39,233 nucleotides of DNA from Escherichia phage Peacock. Below are positions 2,854 through 36,771 of this stretch, one piece after another. The number at the start of each line of letters is the position of its first letter. Position 1 is the stretch's first letter. A model generated the notes under the pieces. The model had not been told where the DNA came from, searched no databases, and worked only from the letters and a program-made list of their open reading frames with translations. The stretch lies in sequence record MK903279.1, one strand, 5' to 3'. Both the position numbers and the translations under genes were made by a program.

Positions 2854-5535
2854 ATGAGCGTCATCTCTATTGACAAACACGACTTCTCTGATGTGTCGAA
2901 CGCCATTGAGCCGTTTAACCTGCTGGCTGACCACTACGGGCAAGACCTTGCAGTCAAACAGCTTCAGCTTGAGCATGAGGCATACACTGAAGGCGAGCGA
3001 CGTTTCATCAAAAACCTTGAGCGACAGACTGAGCGCGGGGAACTGGCAGACAATCAGGTCGCCAAGCCTTTGATGCAGACTCTGGTCCCTAAGATTGCGC
3101 AAGCCGTCAGGGAGTGGCATGAAGGTCAAGACGGGAAGCTGTCAACCTCTCGTCCTAGCGTAGCGTTCACCATGTTGAGCACTGAAGAGAAGGCCGTTAA
3201 AGACCGCTCTATGCGCATCTCCTGCGAGTCTGCTGCGGTTATCATACTGAAGGTCATCCTCAGCAAGCTGGTCAAGCCTGAAGGGATACCGATTACACCG
3301 ATGGCCTCAGCGATAGGTCGCACACTTGAGGATGAAATCCGCTTCGGTCGCATTCGTGACAAGGAGAAGGAGCACTTCAAGAAGGCGATAGCTGATAACC
3401 TGAATAAGCGGGCTGGGGCATCCTACAAAAAAGCCTACATGCAAGCGGTTGAGGCATCCATGCTGGAGCAAGGACAACTGGAAGATGCGTGGGGGACTTG
3501 GAGTCCGACCGAGGCTGTCCACGTTGGAATCAAGATGCTTGAGATTGTCATCCAGTCAACACAACTGGTCGAGCTTAAGCGCTACGGTGCTGGCAATGCA
3601 GCGGCTGATGTAGAGATGGTCCACCTGTCAGACTTCTGGGTCAAGAAGATGGCACAACGAGGCTTCAGCCTTGCGGGTATCGCTCCGGTCTATCAACCTT
3701 GCGTCGTTCCACCTAAGCCGTGGACTGGTGTCGTAGGCGGTGGGTACTGGGCCAAAGGTCGCAGACCACTACCATTGATTCGCTTAGGGTCTAAGTCTGC
3801 GGTGGCACGCTATGAAGACGTGTACATGCCTGAAGTCTATGACGCTGTGAATATCATCCAGAATACGCCTTGGAAAGTGAACAAGAAGGTGCTGGACGTG
3901 GTGAACATGGTCGAGAAGTTGAACAACACGCCTATTGATGACATCCCTCAGATGGAGCCACTGAAGCCTGAAGACTATGCGGGTGAGACTGAAGAGGAAC
4001 TCAAGGCATGGAAGAAGACTGCTGCTGGTATCTACCGCCGAGAGAAGGCCCGCCAGTCACGCAGATTGTCACTGAGCTTTATCGTTAACCAAGCGAACAA
4101 GTTCTCTCAGTTCAAGGCCATCTGGTTCCCGTATAACATGGACTGGCGCGGTCGCGTCTACGCTGTGCCGATGTTCAACCCTCAGGGTAACGACATGCAA
4201 AAGGGTCTCCTGACTCTGGCAGTCGGTAAGCCTATTGGTGCTGATGGTTTCAAATGGCTGAAGGTCCACGGTGCAAACTGTGCGGGTGTCGATAAAGTCA
4301 CCTTCGAGGAGCGCATCAAGTGGGTGGAAGATAACCACGACAACATCATGGCTACCGCTAAGGCACCGATGGACAGCATTGAGTGGTGGGGTAAGTTAGA
4401 CTCTCCGTTCTGCTTCCTAGCGTTCTGCTTCGAGTATGCTGGCGTAATGCACCACGGTTTGTCTTACTCCTGCTCGCTGCCGATAGCTTTCGATGGGTCC
4501 TGCTCTGGGATTCAGCACTTCAGCGCGATGCTTCGTGATCACATCGGTGGACATGCAGTAAACCTGACGCCTTCCGGTAAGGTCCAAGACATCTACCGCA
4601 TCGTGTCTGACCGCATTGAGGAGGAGCTTAAAGTCCTGCTGGTTAATGGCACGGACAACGAGGTGGTCACTCACGAGGATAAGAAAACTGGCGAGATTAC
4701 CGAACGTATCAAGCTGGGGACACGAGAGCTGGCCCGCCAGTGGCTGACCTACGGTATGTCACGCAAGGTCCCTAAGCGTTCAGTAATGACTCTGGCCTAC
4801 GGGTCGAAAGAGTATGGCTTCGCAGACCAAGTTTACGAGGACATCGTGATGCCAGCGATTGACTCAGGGTCTGGCGCTATGTTCACCGAGCCAAGCCAAG
4901 CGTCTCGCTTCATGGCTAAGATGATTTGGGAAGCTGTGAGTGGAACCGTAGTTGCTGCTGTTGACGTGATGAAGTGGCTTCAGGGTGCTGCCAAGCTGCT
5001 GGCTGCTGAAGTGAAGGACAAGAAGACTGGAGAAATCCTGAAGCCTTGCCTTCCGGTACACTGGGTCACACCTGATGGGTTCCCGGTCTGGCAGGAATAT
5101 CGCAAGAAGGATACCACTCGTCTGAACCTGATGTTCTTAGGGTCATTCAACCTTCAACCTACGGTCAACAAAGGCACGAAGAAAGAGCTGGACAGGCACA
5201 AGCAGGAGTCAGGCATTAGCCCGAACTTCGTCCACTCACAAGATGGAAGCCACCTACGCAAGACTGTAGTCCACACGCATCGCAAGTATGGCGTGATATC
5301 ATTCGCAGTGATTCACGATAGCTTCGGGACCATCCCGGCTGACGCTGAGTATCTGTTCCGTGGTGTCCGTGAGACGATGGTCGAGACCTACCGAGACAAC
5401 GATGTGCTGTTGGACTTCTACGAGCAGTTTGACTGCCAGCTTCACGAGAGCCAGCGCGACAAGTTGCCAGAGCTTCCGAAGAAAGGTAAACTGAATATCG
5501 AGGACATCTTGTCTTCAGACTATGCATTCGCTTAA
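2854..5535 (+). CDS. Single-subunit DNA-dependent RNA polymerase (T7 gene 1 homolog)
   Basis: 893 aa; N-terminus KHDFSDVSNAIEPFNLLADHYG and C-terminus ...HESQRDKLPELPKKGKLNIEDILSSDYAFA match T7 RNAP as recalled (...FAFA end); specificity-loop region PTVNKGTKKELDRHKQESG present. Confidence 0.97.
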   Translation: MSVISIDKHDFSDVSNAIEPFNLLADHYGQDLAVKQLQLEHEAYTEGERRFIKNLERQTERGELADNQVAKPLMQTLVPKIAQAVREWHEGQDGKLSTSRPSVAFTMLSTEEKAVKDRSMRISCESAAVIILKVILSKLVKPEGIPITPMASAIGRTLEDEIRFGRIRDKEKEHFKKAIADNLNKRAGASYKKAYMQAVEASMLEQGQLEDAWGTWSPTEAVHVGIKMLEIVIQSTQLVELKRYGAGNAAADVEMVHLSDFWVKKMAQRGFSLAGIAPVYQPCVVPPKPWTGVVGGGYWAKGRRPLPLIRLGSKSAVARYEDVYMPEVYDAVNIIQNTPWKVNKKVLDVVNMVEKLNNTPIDDIPQMEPLKPEDYAGETEEELKAWKKTAAGIYRREKARQSRRLSLSFIVNQANKFSQFKAIWFPYNMDWRGRVYAVPMFNPQGNDMQKGLLTLAVGKPIGADGFKWLKVHGANCAGVDKVTFEERIKWVEDNHDNIMATAKAPMDSIEWWGKLDSPFCFLAFCFEYAGVMHHGLSYSCSLPIAFDGSCSGIQHFSAMLRDHIGGHAVNLTPSGKVQDIYRIVSDRIEEELKVLLVNGTDNEVVTHEDKKTGEITERIKLGTRELARQWLTYGMSRKVPKRSVMTLAYGSKEYGFADQVYEDIVMPAIDSGSGAMFTEPSQASRFMAKMIWEAVSGTVVAAVDVMKWLQGAAKLLAAEVKDKKTGEILKPCLPVHWVTPDGFPVWQEYRKKDTTRLNLMFLGSFNLQPTVNKGTKKELDRHKQESGISPNFVHSQDGSHLRKTVVHTHRKYGVISFAVIHDSFGTIPADAEYLFRGVRETMVETYRDNDVLLDFYEQFDCQLHESQRDKLPELPKKGKLNIEDILSSDYAFA

Positions 5536-5547
5536 CAGGAGAGAGTT

Positions 5548-5763
5548 ATGAAATTTGCACACAAGCAGACTGGCGTTAAGGGTGGGACCCAAATCGTGAC
5601 CGTAACAGAGCACAATGGTAAGGGTCTAGTGAAGACCACGGTCATCCCTACCGAGATGTCAAAGCAGCTTAATGTCCCATTCAAGACTCTTGTATATCTG
5701 GTCGAGTCAAGCCACGAGAAGTACCTGAAGGACGCAGTGTCCAAACTGGAGCAGACCAAATGA
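5548..5763 (+). CDS. Hypothetical protein (71 aa)
   Basis: GGAGAG RBS 6 nt upstream of ATG; no counterpart recalled at this position in T7. Confidence 0.55.
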   Translation: MKFAHKQTGVKGGTQIVTVTEHNGKGLVKTTVIPTEMSKQLNVPFKTLVYLVESSHEKYLKDAVSKLEQTK

Positions 5764-5842
5764 CAGACCTACAGTTACTAGCCTTGTGGCTGGGAGCACT
5801 TGCAGTATTCACTTTAATCCAACGAAGAAGAGGTTAACCCAT

Positions 5843-6304: not shown

Positions 6305-6322
6305 ACTATCACTATAGGATTA
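6300..6322 (+). promoter_or_regulatory. Phage promoter (phi1.1-like)
   Basis: CTAAACTATCACTATAGGATTAG; +1 G at 6317. Confidence 0.7.
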
Positions 6323-6364
6323 GACTCAAGGTCATGACTCAAAGTCGTGGCCTTCATGATTAAC
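6318..6364 (+). promoter_or_regulatory. RNase III-type processing hairpin (R1.1-like)
   Basis: AGACTCAAGGTCAT...GTGGCCTTCATGATTA; same element recurs at 13114 and 36221 and resembles T7 R0.3 (ACTCAAGG...GCCCTTTATGATA) as recalled. Confidence 0.5.
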
Positions 6365-6402
6365 CCTTACTACTAAACGTAAACTACTGGAGATTTAGCC
6401 AT

Positions 6403-6852: not shown

Positions 6853-7904
6853 TGACAACTATCAAAACTAACCCGCACCGCGCTGTAGATTACTCTGAGT
6901 CTGGCATTAAGAAGGCACTGGAAGCAGCCGGGTCTCTGGAAGCTGAAGTGAAGTACGATGGTGTCCGGTTGAACCTTCCGGTGCTGCGAGAAGGTGAGAC
7001 ATACTGGTTAAGCCGTGAGTCTAAACCGCTGCCAGCACTGGAGTGGATGAACTCTGAGTTAGGGAATGCGTGGACTCAAGCTGACTGGCGATGGTTCCTG
7101 CGTCAAGCTGGATACGAAGGCGTAGGCCTGATGATTGACGGAGAGGTAATGGTCAAAGGTGTTGACTTCAACACATCATCGGGTCTCATCCGAACGAAGT
7201 GGCTGAAGCCTAGCAACGAGGAGTTCGCTGAATGCTATCCGGGACGTGGCAAGAAGGTCCCGTTCTGGGTCGCCCGGTCACGACTCAAGGTTGTGGTCTA
7301 CGGCGTCGTAGATATGACAACCATTGCTGACCCGAAAGCCGAAGGTCCTATCCATAGCGTCACACGCCTGAAGGCCGAAGCTATCGTCCCTCTCCTCCAG
7401 AAATACTTCCCGGAAATCGACTGGGTTCTGTCTGAGTCACACACGGTCTATGACCTTGAGTCGCTCAACTCCCTATATGAAGAGAAGCGTCTGGAAGGAC
7501 ATGAGGGTCTGGTAGTCAAGGACCCACTGGGTAAGTGGAAGCGTGGAAAGAAGTCAGGAATGTGGAAAATGAAGCCTGAGGATACCATTGATGGTACTGT
7601 GTGTGGACTCGTGTGGGGGACTCCGGGTAAGGCCAACGAAGGCAAGGTCATTGGCTTTGAGGTGCTGCTGGAGGACGGAATGGTAGTGAATGCGTGCGGC
7701 CTGACTGAGGAGCAGAAGGATGAGTTCACCGCTTCCGTTCTAAACTGGCGTAAGGGGTTATGCTCAAGCACTATTTATGGAAACCCGTTTGCGGGTAATC
7801 AGGTGGAAGTCCTCTTCATGGAGCGGTTCCCTGATGGCTCCCTTCGTCACCCCAGCTTCAAGTGCTGGCGTGGAACCGAAGACAACCCAACGGTGAAGTC
7901 ATGA
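6852..7904 (+). CDS. ATP-dependent DNA ligase (T7 gene 1.3 homolog)
   Basis: Start set at ATG 6852 overlapping the 1.2 stop (TAATG); MTTIKTNPHRAV... and adenylation motif EVKYDGVR match T7 ligase; track ORF begins 15 nt upstream. Confidence 0.92.
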   Translation: MTTIKTNPHRAVDYSESGIKKALEAAGSLEAEVKYDGVRLNLPVLREGETYWLSRESKPLPALEWMNSELGNAWTQADWRWFLRQAGYEGVGLMIDGEVMVKGVDFNTSSGLIRTKWLKPSNEEFAECYPGRGKKVPFWVARSRLKVVVYGVVDMTTIADPKAEGPIHSVTRLKAEAIVPLLQKYFPEIDWVLSESHTVYDLESLNSLYEEKRLEGHEGLVVKDPLGKWKRGKKSGMWKMKPEDTIDGTVCGLVWGTPGKANEGKVIGFEVLLEDGMVVNACGLTEEQKDEFTASVLNWRKGLCSSTIYGNPFAGNQVEVLFMERFPDGSLRHPSFKCWRGTEDNPTVKS

Positions 7905-8080
7905 GTACACAACTTTATATCAACATAGCAAGTGGTCAACTCTACGCTGTGGTAAATGGCGAGCTGTGGTATCGTAAACTCAAGAAGTGGGCCAAGTCCT
8001 ACTACGATGAAGAGACAATATCAACCATGAGTCATCGCTACCGTAAGGCTGCTAAGGTGAACAACTTTAAGATGCGTTAA
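7901..8080 (+). CDS. Small hypothetical protein (59 aa)
   Basis: ATG overlaps the ligase stop (ATGA); track ORF 7862..8080 is the same frame. Confidence 0.5.
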   Translation: MSTQLYINIASGQLYAVVNGELWYRKLKKWAKSYYDEETISTMSHRYRKAAKVNNFKMR

Positions 8081-8086
8081 CGTCAA

Positions 8087-8117
8087 CCCAGTGGTCTTAG
8101 GACTGCTGGGTTTCTTT
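8087..8117 (+). terminator. Candidate intrinsic terminator (early terminator TE-like position)
   Basis: CCCAGTGG ... ACTGCTGGG stem (about 8 bp with two G-U pairs) followed by TTTCTTT; lies after the ligase gene block and before the next phage promoter. Confidence 0.4.
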
Positions 8118-8139
8118 GCGTCTGGTCCACCAGCTAGAC

Positions 8140-8162
8140 CCTAAGCTATCACTATAGGACAA
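8140..8162 (+). promoter_or_regulatory. Phage promoter
   Basis: CTAAGCTATCACTATAGGACAAC; +1 G at 8157. Confidence 0.65.
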
Positions 8163-8187
8163 CCTAACCGACCAAAGGAGAAACCTT

Positions 8188-8442
8188 ATGTCTAAAAACT
8201 TAATGTTCAACCGATTTACTCGAAGCTTCCACCTGTCGCATAGCCCATTCAGCTTCCATAAAGCTAATCAACCATTACCCCGATTTGGTAAGACAGTGGC
8301 TCTGTCTCCTACAGTTCATGCGCTAGTCACCCGCAAGTCTATGCTGAATGCTATGGATAAAGAACAAATTGATGTACCTGTGGTCGTTACAAAATGGCCT
8401 CGCATTAAGCTGGCACTTCTGGTAATTAAGGAGGCGCTCTGA
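8188..8442 (+). CDS. Hypothetical protein (84 aa)
   Basis: AAAGGAGAAA RBS; downstream of the promoter at 8140; no motif recognised. Confidence 0.55.
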   Translation: MSKNLMFNRFTRSFHLSHSPFSFHKANQPLPRFGKTVALSPTVHALVTRKSMLNAMDKEQIDVPVVVTKWPRIKLALLVIKEAL

Positions 8443-12949: not shown

Positions 12950-13113
12950 TGTTAAAGAAACTTAAAGCTCGATACCATCGGTTCATGTACAAATGGTGGA
13001 GCGATGAAGCAACCTGCCTGTCGAACATTCTGGGAGACCAGAGGTTCGACTCTAAGGCATGGAAGAAAGCTAACCGGAAGTTCATGTACCACTTCTTGCG
13101 TACAGACTTATAG
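12949..13113 (+). CDS. Small basic hypothetical protein (54 aa, GTG start)
   Basis: GGAGG RBS 7 nt upstream of GTG 12949; not in ORF track (below 60 aa). Confidence 0.4.
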
Positions 13114-13160
13114 GTCTAGACTCAAGGTCATTCACATCGAGTGGCCTTTATGATTAGACT
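13114..13160 (+). promoter_or_regulatory. RNase III-type processing hairpin (R4.7-like)
   Basis: GGTCTAGACTCAAGGTCATTCACATCGAGTGGCCTTTATGATTAGAC; AAGGTCAT can pair with GTGGCCTT (G-U pairs allowed). Confidence 0.5.
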
Positions 13161-31900: not shown

Positions 31901-32848
31901 CAGGGCTTCCTGTCTGACATCGTGGAGCATAGTCTGACTGGTAGTAAGCGTCGGTTCGATGACCGCTGGCTGAAGACCGCTGGTATCTCTGACGAGCAGT
32001 GGAAGGGCATTAAGTCCCTAATCCGTGAGTCAGTGACTCGTGGTCCAGACGGGAAGTACACCATCAAGGACAAGAAGGCGTTCAGTCAGGACCCAAGGGC
32101 TATGGACCTGTGGCGTATGGGTGACACCATCGCTGACGAAACGTTACTAAGGCCTCATAAGCTGTCTAACATGGACGCCAAGGCTTATGGTCCTCTCGCT
32201 AAGACTGTCCTTCAGTTTAAGAACTTCGTCATCAAGTCCATCAATGGGCGAACCATGCGAACCTTCTATAACGCCACGAAGAACAACCGAGCGATGGATG
32301 CTGCCCTATCTACCGTGATGTCTATGGGTCTGGCTGGTATCTACTACATGGCTCAGGCTCACGTCAAGGCTTACGCTATGCAGGATGGTAGAGACCGTGA
32401 ATACCTCAAGCAAGCTCTGGACCCGATGATGATTGGTTATGCGGCTCTGTCCCGTAGTTCACACCTTGGTGGCCCACTTGGGGTAGCTAACATTCTAGGT
32501 GGCATCGCTGGGTATGAGGACACTAAGATGCTCCGTTCGTCTATCCTACCTCGTTCACCTACAGAGAAGCCTGAACGTGCTATCGCGTATGGTGCGGCTA
32601 CAAGTGACCCTGTGATGAATGTCGTTGGTAACTTTTTGGAGCAGGTTCCAGCTTTCGGATATGCTGCTAACGTTGGTGCTTCTGCTTATAACTTGGCTGG
32701 CTACCTCAAGGCTGATACTCGTGTCAACGAGCGAGACTACATGACCGGGATGTATAATACGTTCCGTGAACTGGTCCCGAACGACCCAATTACCCAGAAG
32801 CTATTACTTGGAACGTTTGAGGAGCAAGGTATCCACATCAAGGACTAA
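28961..32848 (+). CDS. Internal virion protein D (T7 gene 16 homolog) with an atypical N-terminal domain
   Basis: 1295 aa; from about residue 190 onward (...RLEARETARN..., ...VRSPTGMQSGASGK..., ...RELMENPA.FG..., ...GTYVPHVY..., ...ENNSFLEARNLFDSD..., ...VNGDIAIMA.TGKTTK...) matches T7 gp16; N-terminal RNNNPGNIR-containing region does not match the T7 lytic transglycosylase domain as recalled. Confidence 0.9.
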   Translation: MATRGIRNNNPGNIRVSKDQWEGMTGDDGAFVTFDSPESGVRALGKNLLSYGRQGYDSIEKIINRWAPPNENDTKAYIDSVVAATGIPATQSLDLSDPDTLSSLAQAISFHETGSRYDPEVYQKGVARALTGISPKTPPVSANVFDALTEGLKAKPKVALGENLPTSAGLNIEGQAPEAPNESFGEMFYKATGETMQEQEDRSTWFGFGAATEAEVKNSMVGVAIRAGQTEDSLDVIGDVFNPTRWNNHKWSREELDQIRNAGVLPQYYGVITGGSPQNLTELINLALENQKLDAEKAKAGTGAQLAAGVIGAGVDPLTYVPIAGQVGKGGKLVNKMFTVAAQSGALAGVSEMARTSVAGGDAHVAEAILGGALFGGGMTAIADGLGRALGRNTNEFAGPATRLEARETARNVDGQDLSRLPIQEGEQTFSHQGVKFADVPNEPGSVRLEDGSILIGENPLNPKTRQVFDEVIEPERAAAGVNLGGLTEIGLKLLRSENPEIRGVAADLVRSPTGMQSGASGKIGTTASDVFERLRAVDHRFYNDIDDAVTEALKDPYFQTAFWRDSGAFRQDIYQRVSMAIEDGSGNLKAELTPGELKVYDLLKNQFDAKREMMENPAMFGRPDAKSIFPGSRFKGTYVPHVYSNQMKELYIKELGSPEALQEAIKKSWLTSYASRPEVKKRVDEALLEADPTLTPEGLAAAVDKYANDKAYGISHTEQFERSSVMEENINGLVGLENNSFLEARNLFDSDMSIVLPNGQTFSVNNLREWDMDKIVPAYNRRVNGDIAIMAGTGKTTKDMKDLVETMMNKAGDDGKLKGEVSTLRDTLKILTGRARRDGADDAAFATVMRTMTDLSFFAKNAYMGVQNLTEIGGMLARGNVRALLHGVPMFRDLAFRNKKVGASEVKDLHNVIFGKELDDSIRPSKQDVIDRLRSYSDLGRGAATALGTAKYYTGELAVRSPFTKVLNGTTNYLLDAGRQGFLSDIVEHSLTGSKRRFDDRWLKTAGISDEQWKGIKSLIRESVTRGPDGKYTIKDKKAFSQDPRAMDLWRMGDTIADETLLRPHKLSNMDAKAYGPLAKTVLQFKNFVIKSINGRTMRTFYNATKNNRAMDAALSTVMSMGLAGIYYMAQAHVKAYAMQDGRDREYLKQALDPMMIGYAALSRSSHLGGPLGVANILGGIAGYEDTKMLRSSILPRSPTEKPERAIAYGAATSDPVMNVVGNFLEQVPAFGYAANVGASAYNLAGYLKADTRVNERDYMTGMYNTFRELVPNDPITQKLLLGTFEEQGIHIKD

Positions 32849-32866
32849 ACTATCACTATAGGAAAC
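32844..32866 (+). promoter_or_regulatory. Phage promoter (phi17-like)
   Basis: GACTAAACTATCACTATAGGAAACG; overlaps the gene 16 stop. Confidence 0.7.
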
Positions 32867-32912: not shown

Positions 32913-35612
32913 ATGTCTACTATTACACAATTCCCTTCAGGAAACACTCAGTACAGGATTGAGTTCGACTACCTAGCCAGAACGTTTGTTGTTGTTACGC
33001 TGGTGAATAGCTCTAACCCAGCCCTGAACCGTGTACTGGAAGTTGGTCGAGATTACCGATTCCTTAATCCAACAATGATTGAGATGTTGGTTGACCAATC
33101 AGGTTTCGACATCGTTCGTATTCACCGTCAGACTGGAACTGACTTAGTGGTAGACTTCAGGAATGGCTCAGTGTTGACATCTAGTGACCTGACCAATGCA
33201 GAGCTTCAGGCTATCCATATTGCAGAAGAGGGTCGAGACCAAACTGTTGACTTAGCGAAGGAATATGCCGATGCTGCTGGTAGCTCTGCTGGCAACGCTA
33301 AGGATAGCGAGGACGAAGCACGACGAATCGCTGAGAGTATCAAGACCGCTGGCCTACTGGGGTATGTTACCCGTCGCTCCTTCGAGAAAGGCTTCAACAT
33401 TACTGCATGGAACGAGGCACTGCTGTGGGAAGCGGATGGTAACTATTACTGCTGGGATGGTACACTTCCAAAGAACGTTCCTGTTGGCTCAACTCCTGAG
33501 ACTGCTGGTGGTATTGGTAACGGGAAGTGGGTCAGTATTGGAGATGCGGCACTACGAGGGCAGATTTCAGACCCTGAAGGTGCAACAAAATATCCTGAAC
33601 TACAAATTGCTCGCTGGCGTGATAATGGCGATCCGCGTGGATGGGGGGCTATTGGTGATGGAGTTACAGATGACACATTAGCGTTACAAGCGTGTTTTGA
33701 CACCGCTACTTGCGACATAGATTTAGGTGGAAAGACATATTTAGTTAGAAAAAATCCCACATTGGCTGCTACATATCCTAATGAGCCTGACTTCTCTGAT
33801 GGTTCTTATAACTACAGTCCTTGTTTGGCACTAGTAGGTAAAAAGAACATCAAGATTCACAATGGAGCGCTCATTGTTGAAACTCATGGTCTCGATGCAA
33901 TTAGTCTTATTGCGTGTGAGCATGTTACTGTTGATTTAACAATCAAGGGTCCAGGCATCTTCCCAGCGATCGATACACCAACCGGATATGCAGAGAAAGG
34001 TGAGGCAAACTTCGGTTACGACTCGTCCTTATTGCTAGCCCCAAACAATGCCCTTGATACAAGTGCATACACTGGAGGGGCATACGCAGGAGTAGCAGGT
34101 CAGTTCCCTAAATACAATGCGGATGGAAGTCAAGCTTCTGGTTGGCAAAGTACATGGGGTACATTCCTTGGTGGCTACATCGGTAGCTGGGCTTGTGGTG
34201 TTAAGGTGCAGCGTGCATGCCGTGGTATTCTGATCAATGACTGTGACATCTCTGGGTTTAACTTTGGTGCTGTAGGTATTGGAATCCGTAACACAGCAGC
34301 GGCCTATGGTGCAAGTGATTACACCACAGATGCAGATATACCTGATGGTGTTATGGTTATTAACACACGCATTCGCAAGTGCTACAGTGCAGGTATCTAC
34401 GTCCTATCTGGTTATCGCCTTAACTACATGGCGAACAACATTGAAGACATCGGTCACCCTAATGGCAATGATGCATTGAACGCAAGCTATGACCCCGGCT
34501 ATGGTATTACCCATGGTCGCAATCGTCGCATCCGTAATGTAACGATTACAGAGAACATGATTCGTAACTGCCGACGCAAGTGTATTGACTTCCACGGAGG
34601 TGGTCAGGCTATCATCGCCAAAAACCATTGCCTTGAGCATGGTGTTGTTGGTATCTACGCTAAGTGCGGTCCGGGCTGGTCGCCCAACTACGAACCATAC
34701 AACCTGATTATCGCTGACAACTATGTTCGTTCACGTGATGTTCCAGCAAGTGAAACCACAGGTCCACTTATTGGTGCTAAGTATACTCGAAGCATCGATG
34801 TAGGTGGTGGTGGTGAGGCAACACAGGCTACCTATCCAGACCCGTTTGTCAAGATTCACAATAACTATTGTGAGCTTCGTGCATACGATGGAGTGGCAAT
34901 TAGTACAGGCGCAGGTGATGACAATTACAATGTCTTCATGGACATTGATGTCAGCCACAACACGGTTGTGCTTAAGTGCAACACACCTAACAACTTCGCA
35001 GAGGGCATCGGCATTAACGCAGGTGCAGCATCTAACAAGGTGTATCGTGGGCAGAGAGTCAAGCTTATTGGTAACAGCATTAAGCAGCTAAACACACTCA
35101 ACCTAACCTATCGAAGTGCAGGGTATAAGATTCAGGGTATCCCTAAATCACTTATAATGCATGGCAATACGTTGGACTTGAATGTGTCTACTCAGAGTTG
35201 CAAGCTGTGTGACTTCGTTATCGACAGTCGTATAAACTACAGCTTCGAAGGGAACCAAGTGTTAAGCTTCAGTGCTCGTGACAGTGCAACTCTGCAAGAG
35301 GTGTGGTTGTACGACAATATGAAGATCACACGTCCAGCGGCAGCAGCAGCAGCTACCATCAGTGGCAATCTGTTCCGTGGCATCTGGCAGGTATGCATTG
35401 CAGGTACAGGTGATGCCTTTGGTGCCAAGCAGACACAGTTTGCAAGCACTGGCTCAGGCGGTACAGGGTTCGATGTGGTTCGTTCAGCTACTACAGGCTT
35501 CATTGCCACCTTTGGCATTGGTGCAAGCGGCTTAATAGTGCCAGCAGTAACCCAAGAGTCTCAGGTGCAAATCAACCTTAAGTTGGTTAGCTCATTGGAT
35601 TCTGTAGCTTAG
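32913..35612 (+). CDS. Tail fiber / tailspike: T7 gp17-type N-terminal adaptor fused to a pectate-lyase-like beta-helix (putative polysaccharide depolymerase)
   Basis: N-terminus ...IEFDYLARTFVVVTLVN...DYRF...LVDF.NGSVL...AE.Q..HIAEEGRD... matches T7 gp17 residues 1-150; downstream WGAIGDGVTDDTLALQACFD is the hallmark motif of pectate-lyase-fold glycosidases and tailspikes; third codon positions become A/T-rich from about 33580. Confidence 0.88.
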   Translation: MSTITQFPSGNTQYRIEFDYLARTFVVVTLVNSSNPALNRVLEVGRDYRFLNPTMIEMLVDQSGFDIVRIHRQTGTDLVVDFRNGSVLTSSDLTNAELQAIHIAEEGRDQTVDLAKEYADAAGSSAGNAKDSEDEARRIAESIKTAGLLGYVTRRSFEKGFNITAWNEALLWEADGNYYCWDGTLPKNVPVGSTPETAGGIGNGKWVSIGDAALRGQISDPEGATKYPELQIARWRDNGDPRGWGAIGDGVTDDTLALQACFDTATCDIDLGGKTYLVRKNPTLAATYPNEPDFSDGSYNYSPCLALVGKKNIKIHNGALIVETHGLDAISLIACEHVTVDLTIKGPGIFPAIDTPTGYAEKGEANFGYDSSLLLAPNNALDTSAYTGGAYAGVAGQFPKYNADGSQASGWQSTWGTFLGGYIGSWACGVKVQRACRGILINDCDISGFNFGAVGIGIRNTAAAYGASDYTTDADIPDGVMVINTRIRKCYSAGIYVLSGYRLNYMANNIEDIGHPNGNDALNASYDPGYGITHGRNRRIRNVTITENMIRNCRRKCIDFHGGGQAIIAKNHCLEHGVVGIYAKCGPGWSPNYEPYNLIIADNYVRSRDVPASETTGPLIGAKYTRSIDVGGGGEATQATYPDPFVKIHNNYCELRAYDGVAISTGAGDDNYNVFMDIDVSHNTVVLKCNTPNNFAEGIGINAGAASNKVYRGQRVKLIGNSIKQLNTLNLTYRSAGYKIQGIPKSLIMHGNTLDLNVSTQSCKLCDFVIDSRINYSFEGNQVLSFSARDSATLQEVWLYDNMKITRPAAAAAATISGNLFRGIWQVCIAGTGDAFGAKQTQFASTGSGGTGFDVVRSATTGFIATFGIGASGLIVPAVTQESQVQINLKLVSSLDSVA

Positions 35613-35765
35613 ACATGAAGGGCAGACTTAGTTATGCCCAAGGAGGGATGTGTCAGTAACAGGGCAGGCGGCTCGAAGACTGTGGAAGTAGAGGCGAACT
35701 ACACGCTGGTTAACGTAGGGTAACAACTTTGGGTCAAGGACGACCCGCTTTAAACTGGAGGTTTT

Positions 35766-35960
35766 ATGATTGAGTTAGACTTCAAGAATGAGGTCCTTAA
35801 AGCCTCTCCTATAGTCGGGACCGCTGCGGCTGATGGTGCCAGTCGGTTCTTCTTCGGACTCACACTGAACGAATGGTTCTACGTTGCAGCGATCGCGTAC
35901 ACCGTTGTCCAGATTGGTGTGCTGGTCTACAAAACGATTAAAGGAGGTGGTAAAACATGA
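35766..35960 (+). CDS. Holin (T7 gene 17.5 homolog)
   Basis: ...LKASPIVGTAAADGASRFFFGLTLNEWFYVAAIAYTVVQIG... near-identical to the T7 holin as recalled. Confidence 0.9.
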   Translation: MIELDFKNEVLKASPIVGTAAADGASRFFFGLTLNEWFYVAAIAYTVVQIGVLVYKTIKGGGKT

Positions 35961-36220
35961 CTCAGATGGACTTAGAGAAGTTCCTCTTGATGCTTGATAC
36001 TGAACGTGCTCGACTTATGCTGAAAGACTTGCGGGATGACACTAAGCGTTCACCTCAGCTCTACAACGCCATTGAGAAGCTGCTTGCTCGTCACAACTTT
36101 GTGTTAAGCAAGGTGTCTGTGGACGAGAAGACGCTGGCTGATATGGAGGCCCTGAACGCAGAGTACGATAAGGTGCTTTCAGCGACTGAGGATAATGACA
36201 CCGGGTATGGTGTTCAATAA
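35957..36220 (+). CDS. Terminase small subunit (T7 gene 18 homolog)
   Basis: ...LLMLDTERARLMLKDLRDDTKRSPQLYNAIEKLLARHNF... matches T7 gp18 (...LEMLDTAMAQRMLADLSDHERRSPQLYNAINKLLDRHKF...). Confidence 0.85.
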   Translation: MTQMDLEKFLLMLDTERARLMLKDLRDDTKRSPQLYNAIEKLLARHNFVLSKVSVDEKTLADMEALNAEYDKVLSATEDNDTGYGVQ

Positions 36221-36270
36221 GTGTTAGACTCAAGGTCATTACTATATGTAGTGGCCTTTATGGTTAACAC
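36221..36270 (+). promoter_or_regulatory. RNase III-type processing hairpin (R18.5-like)
   Basis: GTGTTAGACTCAAGGTCATTACTATATGTAGTGGCCTTTATGGTTAACAC; third copy of the 6318/13114 element. Confidence 0.5.
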
Positions 36271-36321
36271 TAACTAGTGGAGGCGACTCTACGTGAAATA
36301 TGATAAACCGGGAGGGCAACT

Positions 36322-36771
36322 ATGCTCGAATTTTTAAAGAGAGCGGCTCCGTGGTTACTTGCAGCAGTGATGTTTGCTGGTGGCTACCACACCGCTAACA
36401 ATAAGTGGGAGGCTAAGGTCAATGCAGAATACACCTCGAATCTTAAGGCATCGGAAGATACAAGGCTTGCTGTCCAAGCTGAAGTCAACAAAGTGTCCAA
36501 GCGGTTTCAGGACGAAATGTCCTCGCTGGAAGGCAGCACTGATAGGATTATTGCTGACCTTCAGTCTGACAATAAGCGGCTGCGCATCCGAGTCAAACCA
36601 ACGAGTGGAGCCACGCAAAGTGACGGTCGATGCGTCATTGATGGTTACGCCGAACTTGACGAACGAGATGCTAAACGTCTTATCGCCATCGGAGTGAAAG
36701 GAGACAAGTGGATTAAGGCCCTTCAGGACACTGTGAGAGCCTTACAGCAAGATAAGGAGGTGACGCATTGA
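36322..36771 (+). CDS. Rz-like i-spanin (T7 gene 18.5 homolog)
   Basis: [21 protein letters not shown]... N-terminal transmembrane segment and ...[24 protein letters not shown]... match T7 gp18.5. Confidence 0.85.
36422..36697 (+). CDS. Rz1-like o-spanin lipoprotein embedded in Rz in the +1 frame (start uncertain)
   Basis: Embedded ORF with hydrophobic stretch [16 protein letters not shown] followed by Cys (lipobox-like ISGC); ATG 36422 is the first in-frame ATG, and the track ORF starts at TTG 36374. Confidence 0.45.
   Translation: MQNTPRILRHRKIQGLLSKLKSTKCPSGFRTKCPRWKAALIGLLLTFSLTISGCASESNQRVEPRKVTVDASLMVTPNLTNEMLNVLSPSE

Follow-up and report, generated by a model that had tools for sequence, protein, structure and literature searches.

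Gene 17 of Escherichia phage Peacock, a K1F-like (Kayfunavirus) podophage of the T7 family, in all likelihood encodes a modular tailspike, in which a conserved tail-docking head carries an exchangeable beta-helix module, the latter most likely binding and cutting the O22-like O-antigen of E. coli 4s. The gene (positions 32913-35612, plus strand, stop codon included, as given by the list of open reading frames) specifies 899 amino acids and was analysed within a 39,233-nucleotide stretch of sequence record MK903279.1, hereafter the window. Modular tailspikes of this design are ordinary and have been well described before, and the modular build and conserved flanking motifs of Kayfunavirus receptor-binding proteins are published (PMC10408124). 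For Peacock, we establish here the domain homologies, the predicted fold, the breakpoints of the exchanged segment and the distribution of the module among phages, and we assign a likely receptor class, the O22-like O-antigen, to this one tailspike. An earlier note on this DNA had proposed a T7-type adaptor fused to a horizontally exchanged receptor-binding and enzymatic module of pectate-lyase fold, a proposal supported by the predicted fold, the mapped breakpoints and the spread of the module.

Genomic context of gene 17

The Peacock backbone is 92-94% identical at the nucleotide level to ECG4, LS3, Vec13 and other Kayfunavirus genomes across 24 kb, and the genome has a G+C content of 50.1%. 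Gene 17 is flanked by gene 16, which encodes internal virion protein D, and a class II holin gene, in the order gene 16, gene 17, holin, terminase small subunit that Peacock shares with K1F, Vec13 and T7. Upstream of it, in the conserved backbone, is a phage RNA-polymerase promoter (CTAAACTATCACTATAGGAA, 32845-32864, plus strand), one of ten copies in the window of the consensus ACTATCAC(T/C)NTAGG and the counterpart of the T7 phi17 promoter, which occupies the equivalent relative position immediately upstream of T7 gene 17. The top PHROG hits of the product were families of tail fibers and tail spikes (best 1.1e-70). Look-up of the exact 899-aa sequence returned no database record; a 99%-identical protein is present in Logan SRR13318105. 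A literature search on phages LS2, ECG4 and LS3 found no publications.

A conserved two-layer anchor

The first layer, a T7 gp17-type tail-attachment (adaptor) domain (aa 1-125, 32913-33287, plus strand), was recognized by the Pfam model PF03906, Phage_T7_tail (aa 10-115, 57.6 bits against a cut-off of 25.2, E = 1.6e-15), by alignment with T7 gp17 (40% identity over aa 6-113, E = 2e-19) and by matches to the T7 gp17 N-terminus in the PDB (7boz and 8dsp, E ~1e-16). It includes IEFDYLARTFVVVTLVN (aa 16-32, nt 32958-33008) and shows ~97% nucleotide identity with K1F and Vec13. The N-terminal kinship with T7 gp17 described in the earlier note is therefore real, but extends over about 113 residues rather than about 150; its observation that the rest of the protein has none of the T7 shaft or tip sequence held, with no similarity to T7 gp17 found there. 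T7 gp17 has the homologous attachment domain at the same locus, and its coiled-coil shaft and tip domain bind LPS without enzymatic activity. The first 264 residues of the solved tail spike 9vvr, a structure of 18 chains, are ~90% identical to the gene 17 product; by analogy with this structure and with T7 tail structures, the adaptor may bind the gp11/gp12 tail as six trimers.

Residues ~114-260 are a second conserved layer, composed of a helical linker, a Tail_spike_N neck domain and a GDGVTDD cap, which is common to K1F and to Ackermannviridae tailspikes. The neck (aa 151-222, 33363-33578, plus strand; PF18668, E = 2.7e-17) also occurs in tailspikes from other families of phages, CBA120 TSP1 and G7C gp66 among them, and aa ~150-225 match PDB entries 4oj5, 5w6h, 6nw9 and 9occ. 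Its nucleotide sequence is 97-99% identical to that of Enterobacter Kayfunavirus MII_004 and only 72-85% identical to K1F and Vec13. The beta-helix N-terminal cap motif WGAIGDGVTDDTLALQACFD was found as previously cited (aa 244-263, 33642-33701, plus strand). It has the pattern GxGDGxTDDT, and the profile aligned it with GH55 glucanases, AlgE epimerases, the endosialidase N-terminus and Phi92 gp150; Pfam End_N_terminal scored 19.5 bits, under its cut-off of 26.3.

Limits of the exchanged cassette

BLAST homology to K1F and Vec13 stops at 33677-33686, inside the cap motif and just past GDGVTDD, and is back at 35675. Between 33687 and 35674, BLAST found no similarity to K1F or Vec13, whereas the flanks are 90-96% identical. 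This loss of homology between two homologous sides delimits an exchanged receptor-binding cassette at ~33687-35674 (plus strand), comprising aa ~259-899 and 62 nt of 3' non-coding sequence. More than 100 Kayfunavirus records matched nt 1-780 of the query only. The gap that separates gene 17 from the holin gene (which starts at 35766) falls into two parts on the plus strand: its first 62 nt (35613-35674) are cassette-specific, identical in the Logan relative L002 and unalignable with K1F and Vec13, with the 3' junction at their end, and its last 91 nt (35675-35765) are a conserved holin-gene leader that contains the ribosome-binding site GGAGG and has 96% identity with K1F and Vec13. The cassette recombined between two conserved flanks: 5' of it is the neck and GDGVTDD coding sequence, and 3' of it the holin leader. 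These limits could guide host-range engineering via receptor-binding-domain swaps.

K1F gp17, the endosialidase tailspike of the Kayfunavirus prototype, follows the same logic of a conserved anchor (~260 aa) carrying an exchangeable enzymatic module: its first 287 aa, covering the adaptor, Tail_spike_N and GDGVTDD, are 81% identical to Peacock, and beyond aa ~287 no similarity to K1F gp17 was found. In K1F the module is the catalytic part of the endosialidase and bears the annotation 'catalytic beta propeller domain', whereas that of Peacock is modelled as a beta-helix and a beta-sandwich. K1F gp17 has a cleaved C-terminal chaperone; a Pfam search of the 899-aa protein detected no Peptidase_S74 chaperone domain in Peacock. 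With no K1F similarity, no S74 match and a beta-helix model, the Peacock module falls outside the endosialidases.

Spread of the module among phages

Relatives of the cassette with 45-80% amino acid identity occur in four other phage groups, which identifies it as a horizontally traded module. They include Agtrevirus ChubbyThor gp208 (78-80%; 78% over aa 234-898), Uetakevirus BUCT554 (78%), P46FS4 (70%), Enterobacter Kayfunavirus phages (57-70%) and the P22-like Hf4s (45%), and phages of Enterobacter, Shigella and Salmonella supply the closest natural relatives. Proteins 75-79% identical to the cassette were also found on large genomic contigs of Enterobacter hormaechei, where they probably belong to prophages. 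Hf4s gp15, ChubbyThor gp208, P46FS4 TSP1-22 and the BUCT554 protein have the same receptor-binding module as Peacock on anchors that differ from its own, namely the P22 head-binding domain PF09008 (whose bearers carry the module at 45% identity), the Ackermannviridae TSP anchor and the Uetakevirus anchor. In all, phages carry the same cassette on four other types of N-terminal anchor.

Copies of the module in E. coli genomes, sought in order to read off a serogroup, gave no nucleotide-level match in 5,426 complete genomes. TSP1-22, the matching Ackermannviridae subtype, is an entry in the tail-spike typing table of PMC10892097.

Predicted fold and candidate active site

Fold prediction, suggested earlier as a check on the C-terminal region, returned a right-handed parallel beta-helix of pectate-lyase-like type for the cassette. 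In the model, a helix body (aa ~263-790, 33699-35282, plus strand, boundaries approximate) is accompanied by a C-terminal beta-sandwich domain (aa ~804-899, 35322-35609, plus strand); the latter, residues 590-685 in the numbering of the model, forms strands outside the helix rungs, and a low-confidence loop lies at aa ~850-861. Up to aa 898, ChubbyThor and other close homologues conserve the beta-sandwich together with the rest of the cassette, whereas Hf4s-type proteins diverge beyond aa 851. Kinship with the pectate lyase families lies in fold and cap motif only: no pectate-lyase family model (Pectate_lyase_3 and similar) was among the Pfam matches at E<=1. The best-ranking structural neighbours of the model were the alginate epimerase AlgE4, an alginate epimerase/lyase, and the lyase RbmB, and the neighbours also included the beta-helix adhesins PfbA and Vag8. 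A deacetylase-type spike, as in G7C, was rejected, the fold being a beta-helix and not an esterase fold.

Solved beta-helix depolymerases (the HK620, Sf6, Dettilon, phi297, LKA1 and CBA120 TSPs) and epimerases or lyases of the AlgE4/RbmB type share only 9-17% sequence identity with the module, and their comparison with the helix core gave no sequence-detectable relation. Profile searches against all PDB sequences, run with the whole module and with aa 440-625, returned only the cap motif or non-significant matches. Catalytic residues are therefore non-transferable from solved structures, and any that are named are guesses. As a candidate substrate groove or active site, we point out a cluster at aa 491-571 (34383-34625, plus strand), in which Y491, H515, Y530, R555, K556, D559, H561 and N571 are invariant in 34 of the 34 aligned homologues, down to 22% identity, within the motifs CY, IGHP, DPGYG and RKxIDxH. 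Their spacing of ~24-29 residues suggests that they sit on successive beta-helix rungs. Conserved candidate catalytic residues are thereby available for this receptor-binding family.

Likely receptor and proposed mechanism

Peacock was isolated on E. coli 4s, which is likely its host, an O22-like smooth strain; the polysaccharide-bearing host implied in the earlier note is in line with this. Kulikov et al. reported 45% identity between the Peacock tail spike and the C-terminus of that of Hf4s, a phage isolated on the same host and, by their account, strictly dependent on the 4s O-antigen; our recomputed identity of the cassette agrees with theirs. The literature already ties the Peacock tail spike to O-antigen recognition. 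The Enterobacter, Shigella and Salmonella origin of the closest natural relatives and the lack of a match among the 5,426 E. coli genomes weigh against an E. coli O-antigen target, so that the O22 assignment is based on the host of Peacock together with the 45%-identical Hf4s spike.

In the proposed mechanism, T7 and K1F serve as the analogy for aa 1-125, which would dock six trimers on the tail; the helical linker, Tail_spike_N neck and GDGVTDD cap (aa ~126-262) would lead to the beta-helix (~263-790) and beta-sandwich (~804-899). The beta-helix would bind and most likely cleave a surface polysaccharide of the host, the likeliest target being the O22-like O-antigen of E. coli 4s, and this cleavage would give the short tail access to the outer membrane. 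Trimerisation, enzymatic cleavage and the O-antigen as substrate are what we infer from the comparisons above.

Compared with the O-antigen, neither a K-antigen capsule nor a different exopolysaccharide, for instance colanic acid, is a likely target, given the strict O-antigen requirement of Hf4s and the occurrence of homologues on P22-type and Uetakevirus-type anchors and in Ackermannviridae tailspikes, which mostly recognise O-antigens. The BUCT554 homologue, moreover, adjoins genes for glucosyltransferase and GT2 functions such as occur in the Gtr clusters of O-antigen seroconversion. Still less probable is a beta-helix that serves as a polysaccharide-binding adhesin spike without cleavage. 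PfbA, which has no enzyme activity, and Vag8 are among the structural neighbours and homology gave no catalytic residue assignment, but the eight polar residues strictly invariant on successive rungs form a typical active-site pattern, and most tailspikes of such architecture are depolymerases according to a review (PMC10743462).

For a module that cleaves O-antigen, glycosidase/hydrolase and lyase are equally possible as candidate activities. Hydrolases work with an Asp/Glu pair, for which the conserved acidic residues D354, E361, D475, D520, D559 and D755 would be candidates, and lyases with a Tyr/His/Lys/Arg base. A more specific proposal, that the module is an O-antigen lyase rather than a glycosidase, is put forward tentatively, as a rather doubtful reading. 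It draws on the universally conserved polar residues, which are only Tyr, His, Arg, Lys and a single Asp (Y491, H515, Y530, R555, K556, D559, H561), on the ranking of AlgE4, an alginate epimerase/lyase, and the RbmB lyase as best structural neighbours, and on the presence in the E. coli 4s O-unit of glucuronic acid, a residue of the type required for beta-elimination by a lyase. If true, the module would represent an uncharacterised family of O-antigen lyase tailspikes, common to T7-like, P22-like, epsilon15-like and Ackermannviridae phages of Escherichia, Enterobacter, Shigella and Salmonella.

Codon usage and the intergenic gap

The earlier note had also reported a codon-usage break at about 33580, quoting 'aaa tat cct gaa cta caa att', which is indeed present and starts at nt 33588. 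Gene 17 is GC3-poor (0.427, against 0.557 in 13 other large genes), significantly so over aa 241-899 (binomial p ~1e-11), but its conserved N-terminal 240 codons are equally poor (0.429, p = 7e-5). The unusual codon usage is confined to a local trough at codons ~181-420: GC3 is 0.28 in every 60-codon window of codons 181-330, self-CAI is 0.53-0.58 at codons 211-420, where most windows fall under the background minimum of 0.569, and GC3 returns to ~0.5 at codons 481-600 and 661-840. The trough is genuine. A sharp change-point at the junction was rejected, the best single one in the gene, at codon 669, being non-significant (permutation p = 0.077). GC3 is as low in gp17 of K1F (0.39) and Vec13 (0.41), which have unrelated C-termini and whose gene 16 stands at 0.55-0.60, so that low GC3 is characteristic of gene 17 in the genus and does not mark the Peacock fusion.

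The gap before the holin gene is exactly 153 nt, as stated earlier, against 58 nt in T7. It is 133 nt in K1F, 158 nt in Vec13 and 153 nt in LS2 and the Logan relative, so its length is typical of the genus and does not indicate a recombination scar, although the 3' junction does lie within it. Neither a phage or sigma-70 promoter nor a terminator beyond chance was found in the 153 nt, and no stable RNA fold was detected there (fold z-score 0.18).

It is accordingly improbable that a recent capture from a donor of low GC content left the low GC3 and the long gap behind as direct scars. The depth of the trough, its self-CAI mostly below the background range and the position of the 3' junction would fit such a capture; the equally GC3-poor N-terminus, the values in K1F and Vec13, the lack of a significant single change-point and gaps of 133-158 nt as the rule in the genus speak against it, as does the fact that the trough begins ~230 nt before the backbone junction is reached. 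In this case, neither low GC3 nor a long intergenic gap can be relied on as a sign of recombination.

The phage LS2 record

The closest GenBank match to gene 17, from LS2, contains back-translated, artificial DNA. The two sequences have 659 identical amino acids and differ in 439 codons, which could suggest an extraordinary synonymous divergence; this was rejected, since the LS2 stretch uses exactly one codon per amino acid, and it follows that the LS2 record was back-translated and that the Peacock sequence is the natural one. The partly back-translated LS2 entry would corrupt codon-based or dN/dS analysis and calls for caution in database use.

Domain organization of gp17

The window spans the complete genome of a T7-family phage belonging to Kayfunavirus (K1F-like). 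Across 24 kb it shares 92–94% identity with ECG4, LS3, Vec13 and further phages of this genus, and its length (39,233 bp) and composition (50.1% G+C) are those published for Peacock (MK903279; PMC6763663), a T7-like E. coli podophage that is a relative of Vec13 and has E. coli 4s as its isolation host. The phage promoter consensus occurs ten times, one copy (32845–32864) lying directly upstream of gene 17, a plus-strand ORF (32913–35612, 899 aa) with gene 16 on one side and the class II holin gene on the other, an order shared with K1F, Vec13 and T7. An earlier note had read gene 17 as a T7-type adaptor carrying an exchanged beta-helix module; the sequence strings that it quoted were all found where it had placed them, and this reading proved essentially right, as judged by domain matches, structure model, breakpoints and spread of the module. 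Gene 17 is an ordinary, already published gene type in an already published phage.

In the encoded tailspike (gp17), Pfam recognized Phage_T7_tail at aa 10–115 (E 1.6e-15), Tail_spike_N at aa 151–222 (Pfam match aa 153–211, E 2.7e-17, stretched to ~aa 150–225 by solved tailspikes), Beta_helix at aa 480–606, just over its cut-off, and a sub-threshold End_N_terminal at aa 246–283, covering the GDGVTDD motif. T7 gp17 could be aligned with the Peacock protein over aa 6–113 only (40% identity), whereas K1F gp17 was 81% identical over aa 1–287, with no alignment past there. The sequence-related solved structures, namely a tail spike of Kayfunavirus type (9vvr), the N-terminal part of T7 gp17 and the neck domains of CBA120 TSPs, covered only the N-terminal 264 aa; for the helix core, sequence profiles retrieved none. 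An AlphaFold2 model of aa 215–899 (pLDDT 89.2, pTM 0.89) began with a short helical linker, continued as a long all-beta solenoid (aa ~263–790) and ended in a C-terminal beta-sandwich (aa ~804–899).

Breakpoints and spread of the beta-helix cassette

By BLAST against backbone relatives, homology to K1F/Vec13 stopped at 33677–33686, just past the GDGVTDD-coding stretch, and restarted at 35675, 62 nt beyond the gene 17 stop codon; in more than 100 Kayfunavirus records, the match was limited to query nt 1–780 and the 3' end. In a sliding comparison, identity to K1F/Vec13 was ~97% up to ~33270, ~84% after that and ~72% by 33500. The stretch 33147–33560 (aa ~79–216), over which this identity fell from 97% to ~72–85%, matched Enterobacter Kayfunavirus vB_Ecl_MII_004 at 97–99% identity, compared with only 69–78% on either side of it, and is an extra recombination patch within the "conserved" anchor. 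The identity break at the K1F/Vec13 junctions and this MII_004-like patch thus indicate that gene 17 underwent several exchanges. Their boundaries lie where the T7-type adaptor ends and at the GDGVTDD motif.

The cassette (aa ~259–899) was found again on other phage anchors, in Agtrevirus ChubbyThor gp208 (78% over aa 234–898), P46FS4 (subtype TSP1-22, 70%), Uetakevirus BUCT554 (78%, adjoining glucosyltransferase and GT2 genes) and P22-type proteins with a head-binding domain, Hf4s among them (45%). Many Enterobacter hormaechei proteins (75–79%) also carried it, encoded on large genomic contigs that are probably prophages. Such a modular, horizontally traded tailspike design, with conserved DNA motifs beside the receptor-binding domain, has been published for Kayfunavirus and for other tailspikes (PMC10408124).

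In vB_Ecl_MII_004 (L005, 1579–4247) and in Enterobacter phage 04_vB_Eclo_IJM (L007, 1579–4178), the homologous tailspike gene is split into 6–11 small "hypothetical" ORFs, most likely through frameshift sequencing errors and not true fragmentation. A close relative assembled as a Logan contig (SRR13318105; L002) is 97% identical to the window and has the same tailspike (99% aa); it carries, between the spanin and large-terminase genes, an HNH_3 homing-endonuclease ORF (7837–8274) that the window lacks.

The gap between gene 17 and the holin gene measures 153 nt, against 58 nt in T7, and had been read as a possible recombination scar. Its initial 62 nt go along with the cassette; its final 91 nt, at 96% identity to K1F and Vec13, belong to the backbone and hold the holin ribosome-binding site. 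The 3' crossover thus falls inside the gap. The length of the gap, however, is typical of the genus, where it is 133 nt (K1F), 153 nt (two close relatives) or 158 nt (Vec13). A search of these 153 nt gave neither a promoter nor a terminator, nor any stable structure.

Codon usage of gene 17

The codon-usage break noticed by eye near 33580 has a basis, since GC3 is low gene-wide and genus-wide and a real local trough (0.28–0.40) spans codons ~181–420, but it has no diagnostic value for the fusion point. Gene 17 has the lowest GC3 among the large genes (0.427; pooled value 0.557), yet its first 240, conserved codons are equally poor (0.429), as are K1F and Vec13 gp17 (0.39–0.41), whose C-terminal modules differ, and the best internal change-point was not significant (p = 0.077). 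Self-CAI over codons 211–420 was 0.53–0.58, mostly under the range of 235 background windows. The trough starts ~230 nt 5' of the backbone junction and fades deeper into the module.

Part of the LS2 tail-spike record is artificial

The nearest database match is Escherichia virus LS2 (MN518894.2), in which 3721–5808 of the matching locus (L001) aligns with window 33633–35720. Over codons 241–899, every amino acid in the LS2 tail-spike CDS is encoded by a single, invariable codon (GCG, CTG, AGC etc.); the protein is 100% identical to that of the window there, yet 439 of the 659 codons differ. Past its stop codon, the "intergenic" DNA can likewise be read as a back-translated peptide (ECLWLEAAFQRRRCERIESRLTELELIIKKAKEIES). 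The public record in this region is artificial back-translated sequence, not natural DNA.

Probable receptor and candidate active site

Glucuronic acid is a constituent of the 4s O-unit. The tail spike of Hf4s was 45% identical to the window's module, the value that Kulikov et al. give for the Hf4s and Peacock tail spikes; according to the same authors, Hf4s is strictly dependent on the O22-like O-antigen of strain 4s. Since Peacock was isolated on E. coli 4s, the O-antigen is most likely the gp17 receptor. By analogy to the solved tail structures of T7 and Kayfunavirus, six gp17 trimers would dock on the tail via the T7-type domain; the beta-helix would bind the O-antigen and probably cleave it, allowing the tail to reach the membrane.

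Across an alignment of 34 homologues, eight polar residues (Y491, H515, Y530, R555, K556, D559, H561 and N571) were invariant in 34/34 sequences, down to 22% identity, and are spaced as successive rungs. On these grounds we propose that they form the active site or a substrate groove. A lyase (beta-elimination) is slightly favoured over a hydrolase by the abundance of Tyr, His, Lys and Arg in this invariant set and by the epimerase/lyase top matches, but the module contains further conserved acidic residues besides this set.

Other elements in the window

A ~50-nt element (TAGACTCAAGGTCAT...AGTGGCCTTTATGATTA) has three intergenic copies (6313–6372, 13109–13156 and 36217–36276), one of them separating gene 18 from the spanin gene; they are possible RNase III processing hairpins of the T7 R18.5 kind. 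Within the Rz-like gene (36322–36771), an embedded +1-frame ORF (36374–36697, plus strand) with a lipobox-like motif is probably the o-spanin (Rz1 / T7 18.7 equivalent). The early region contains a 55-nt direct repeat (1023–1077 and 1372–1426, 98% identical) with a third, degenerate copy at 2073–2127.
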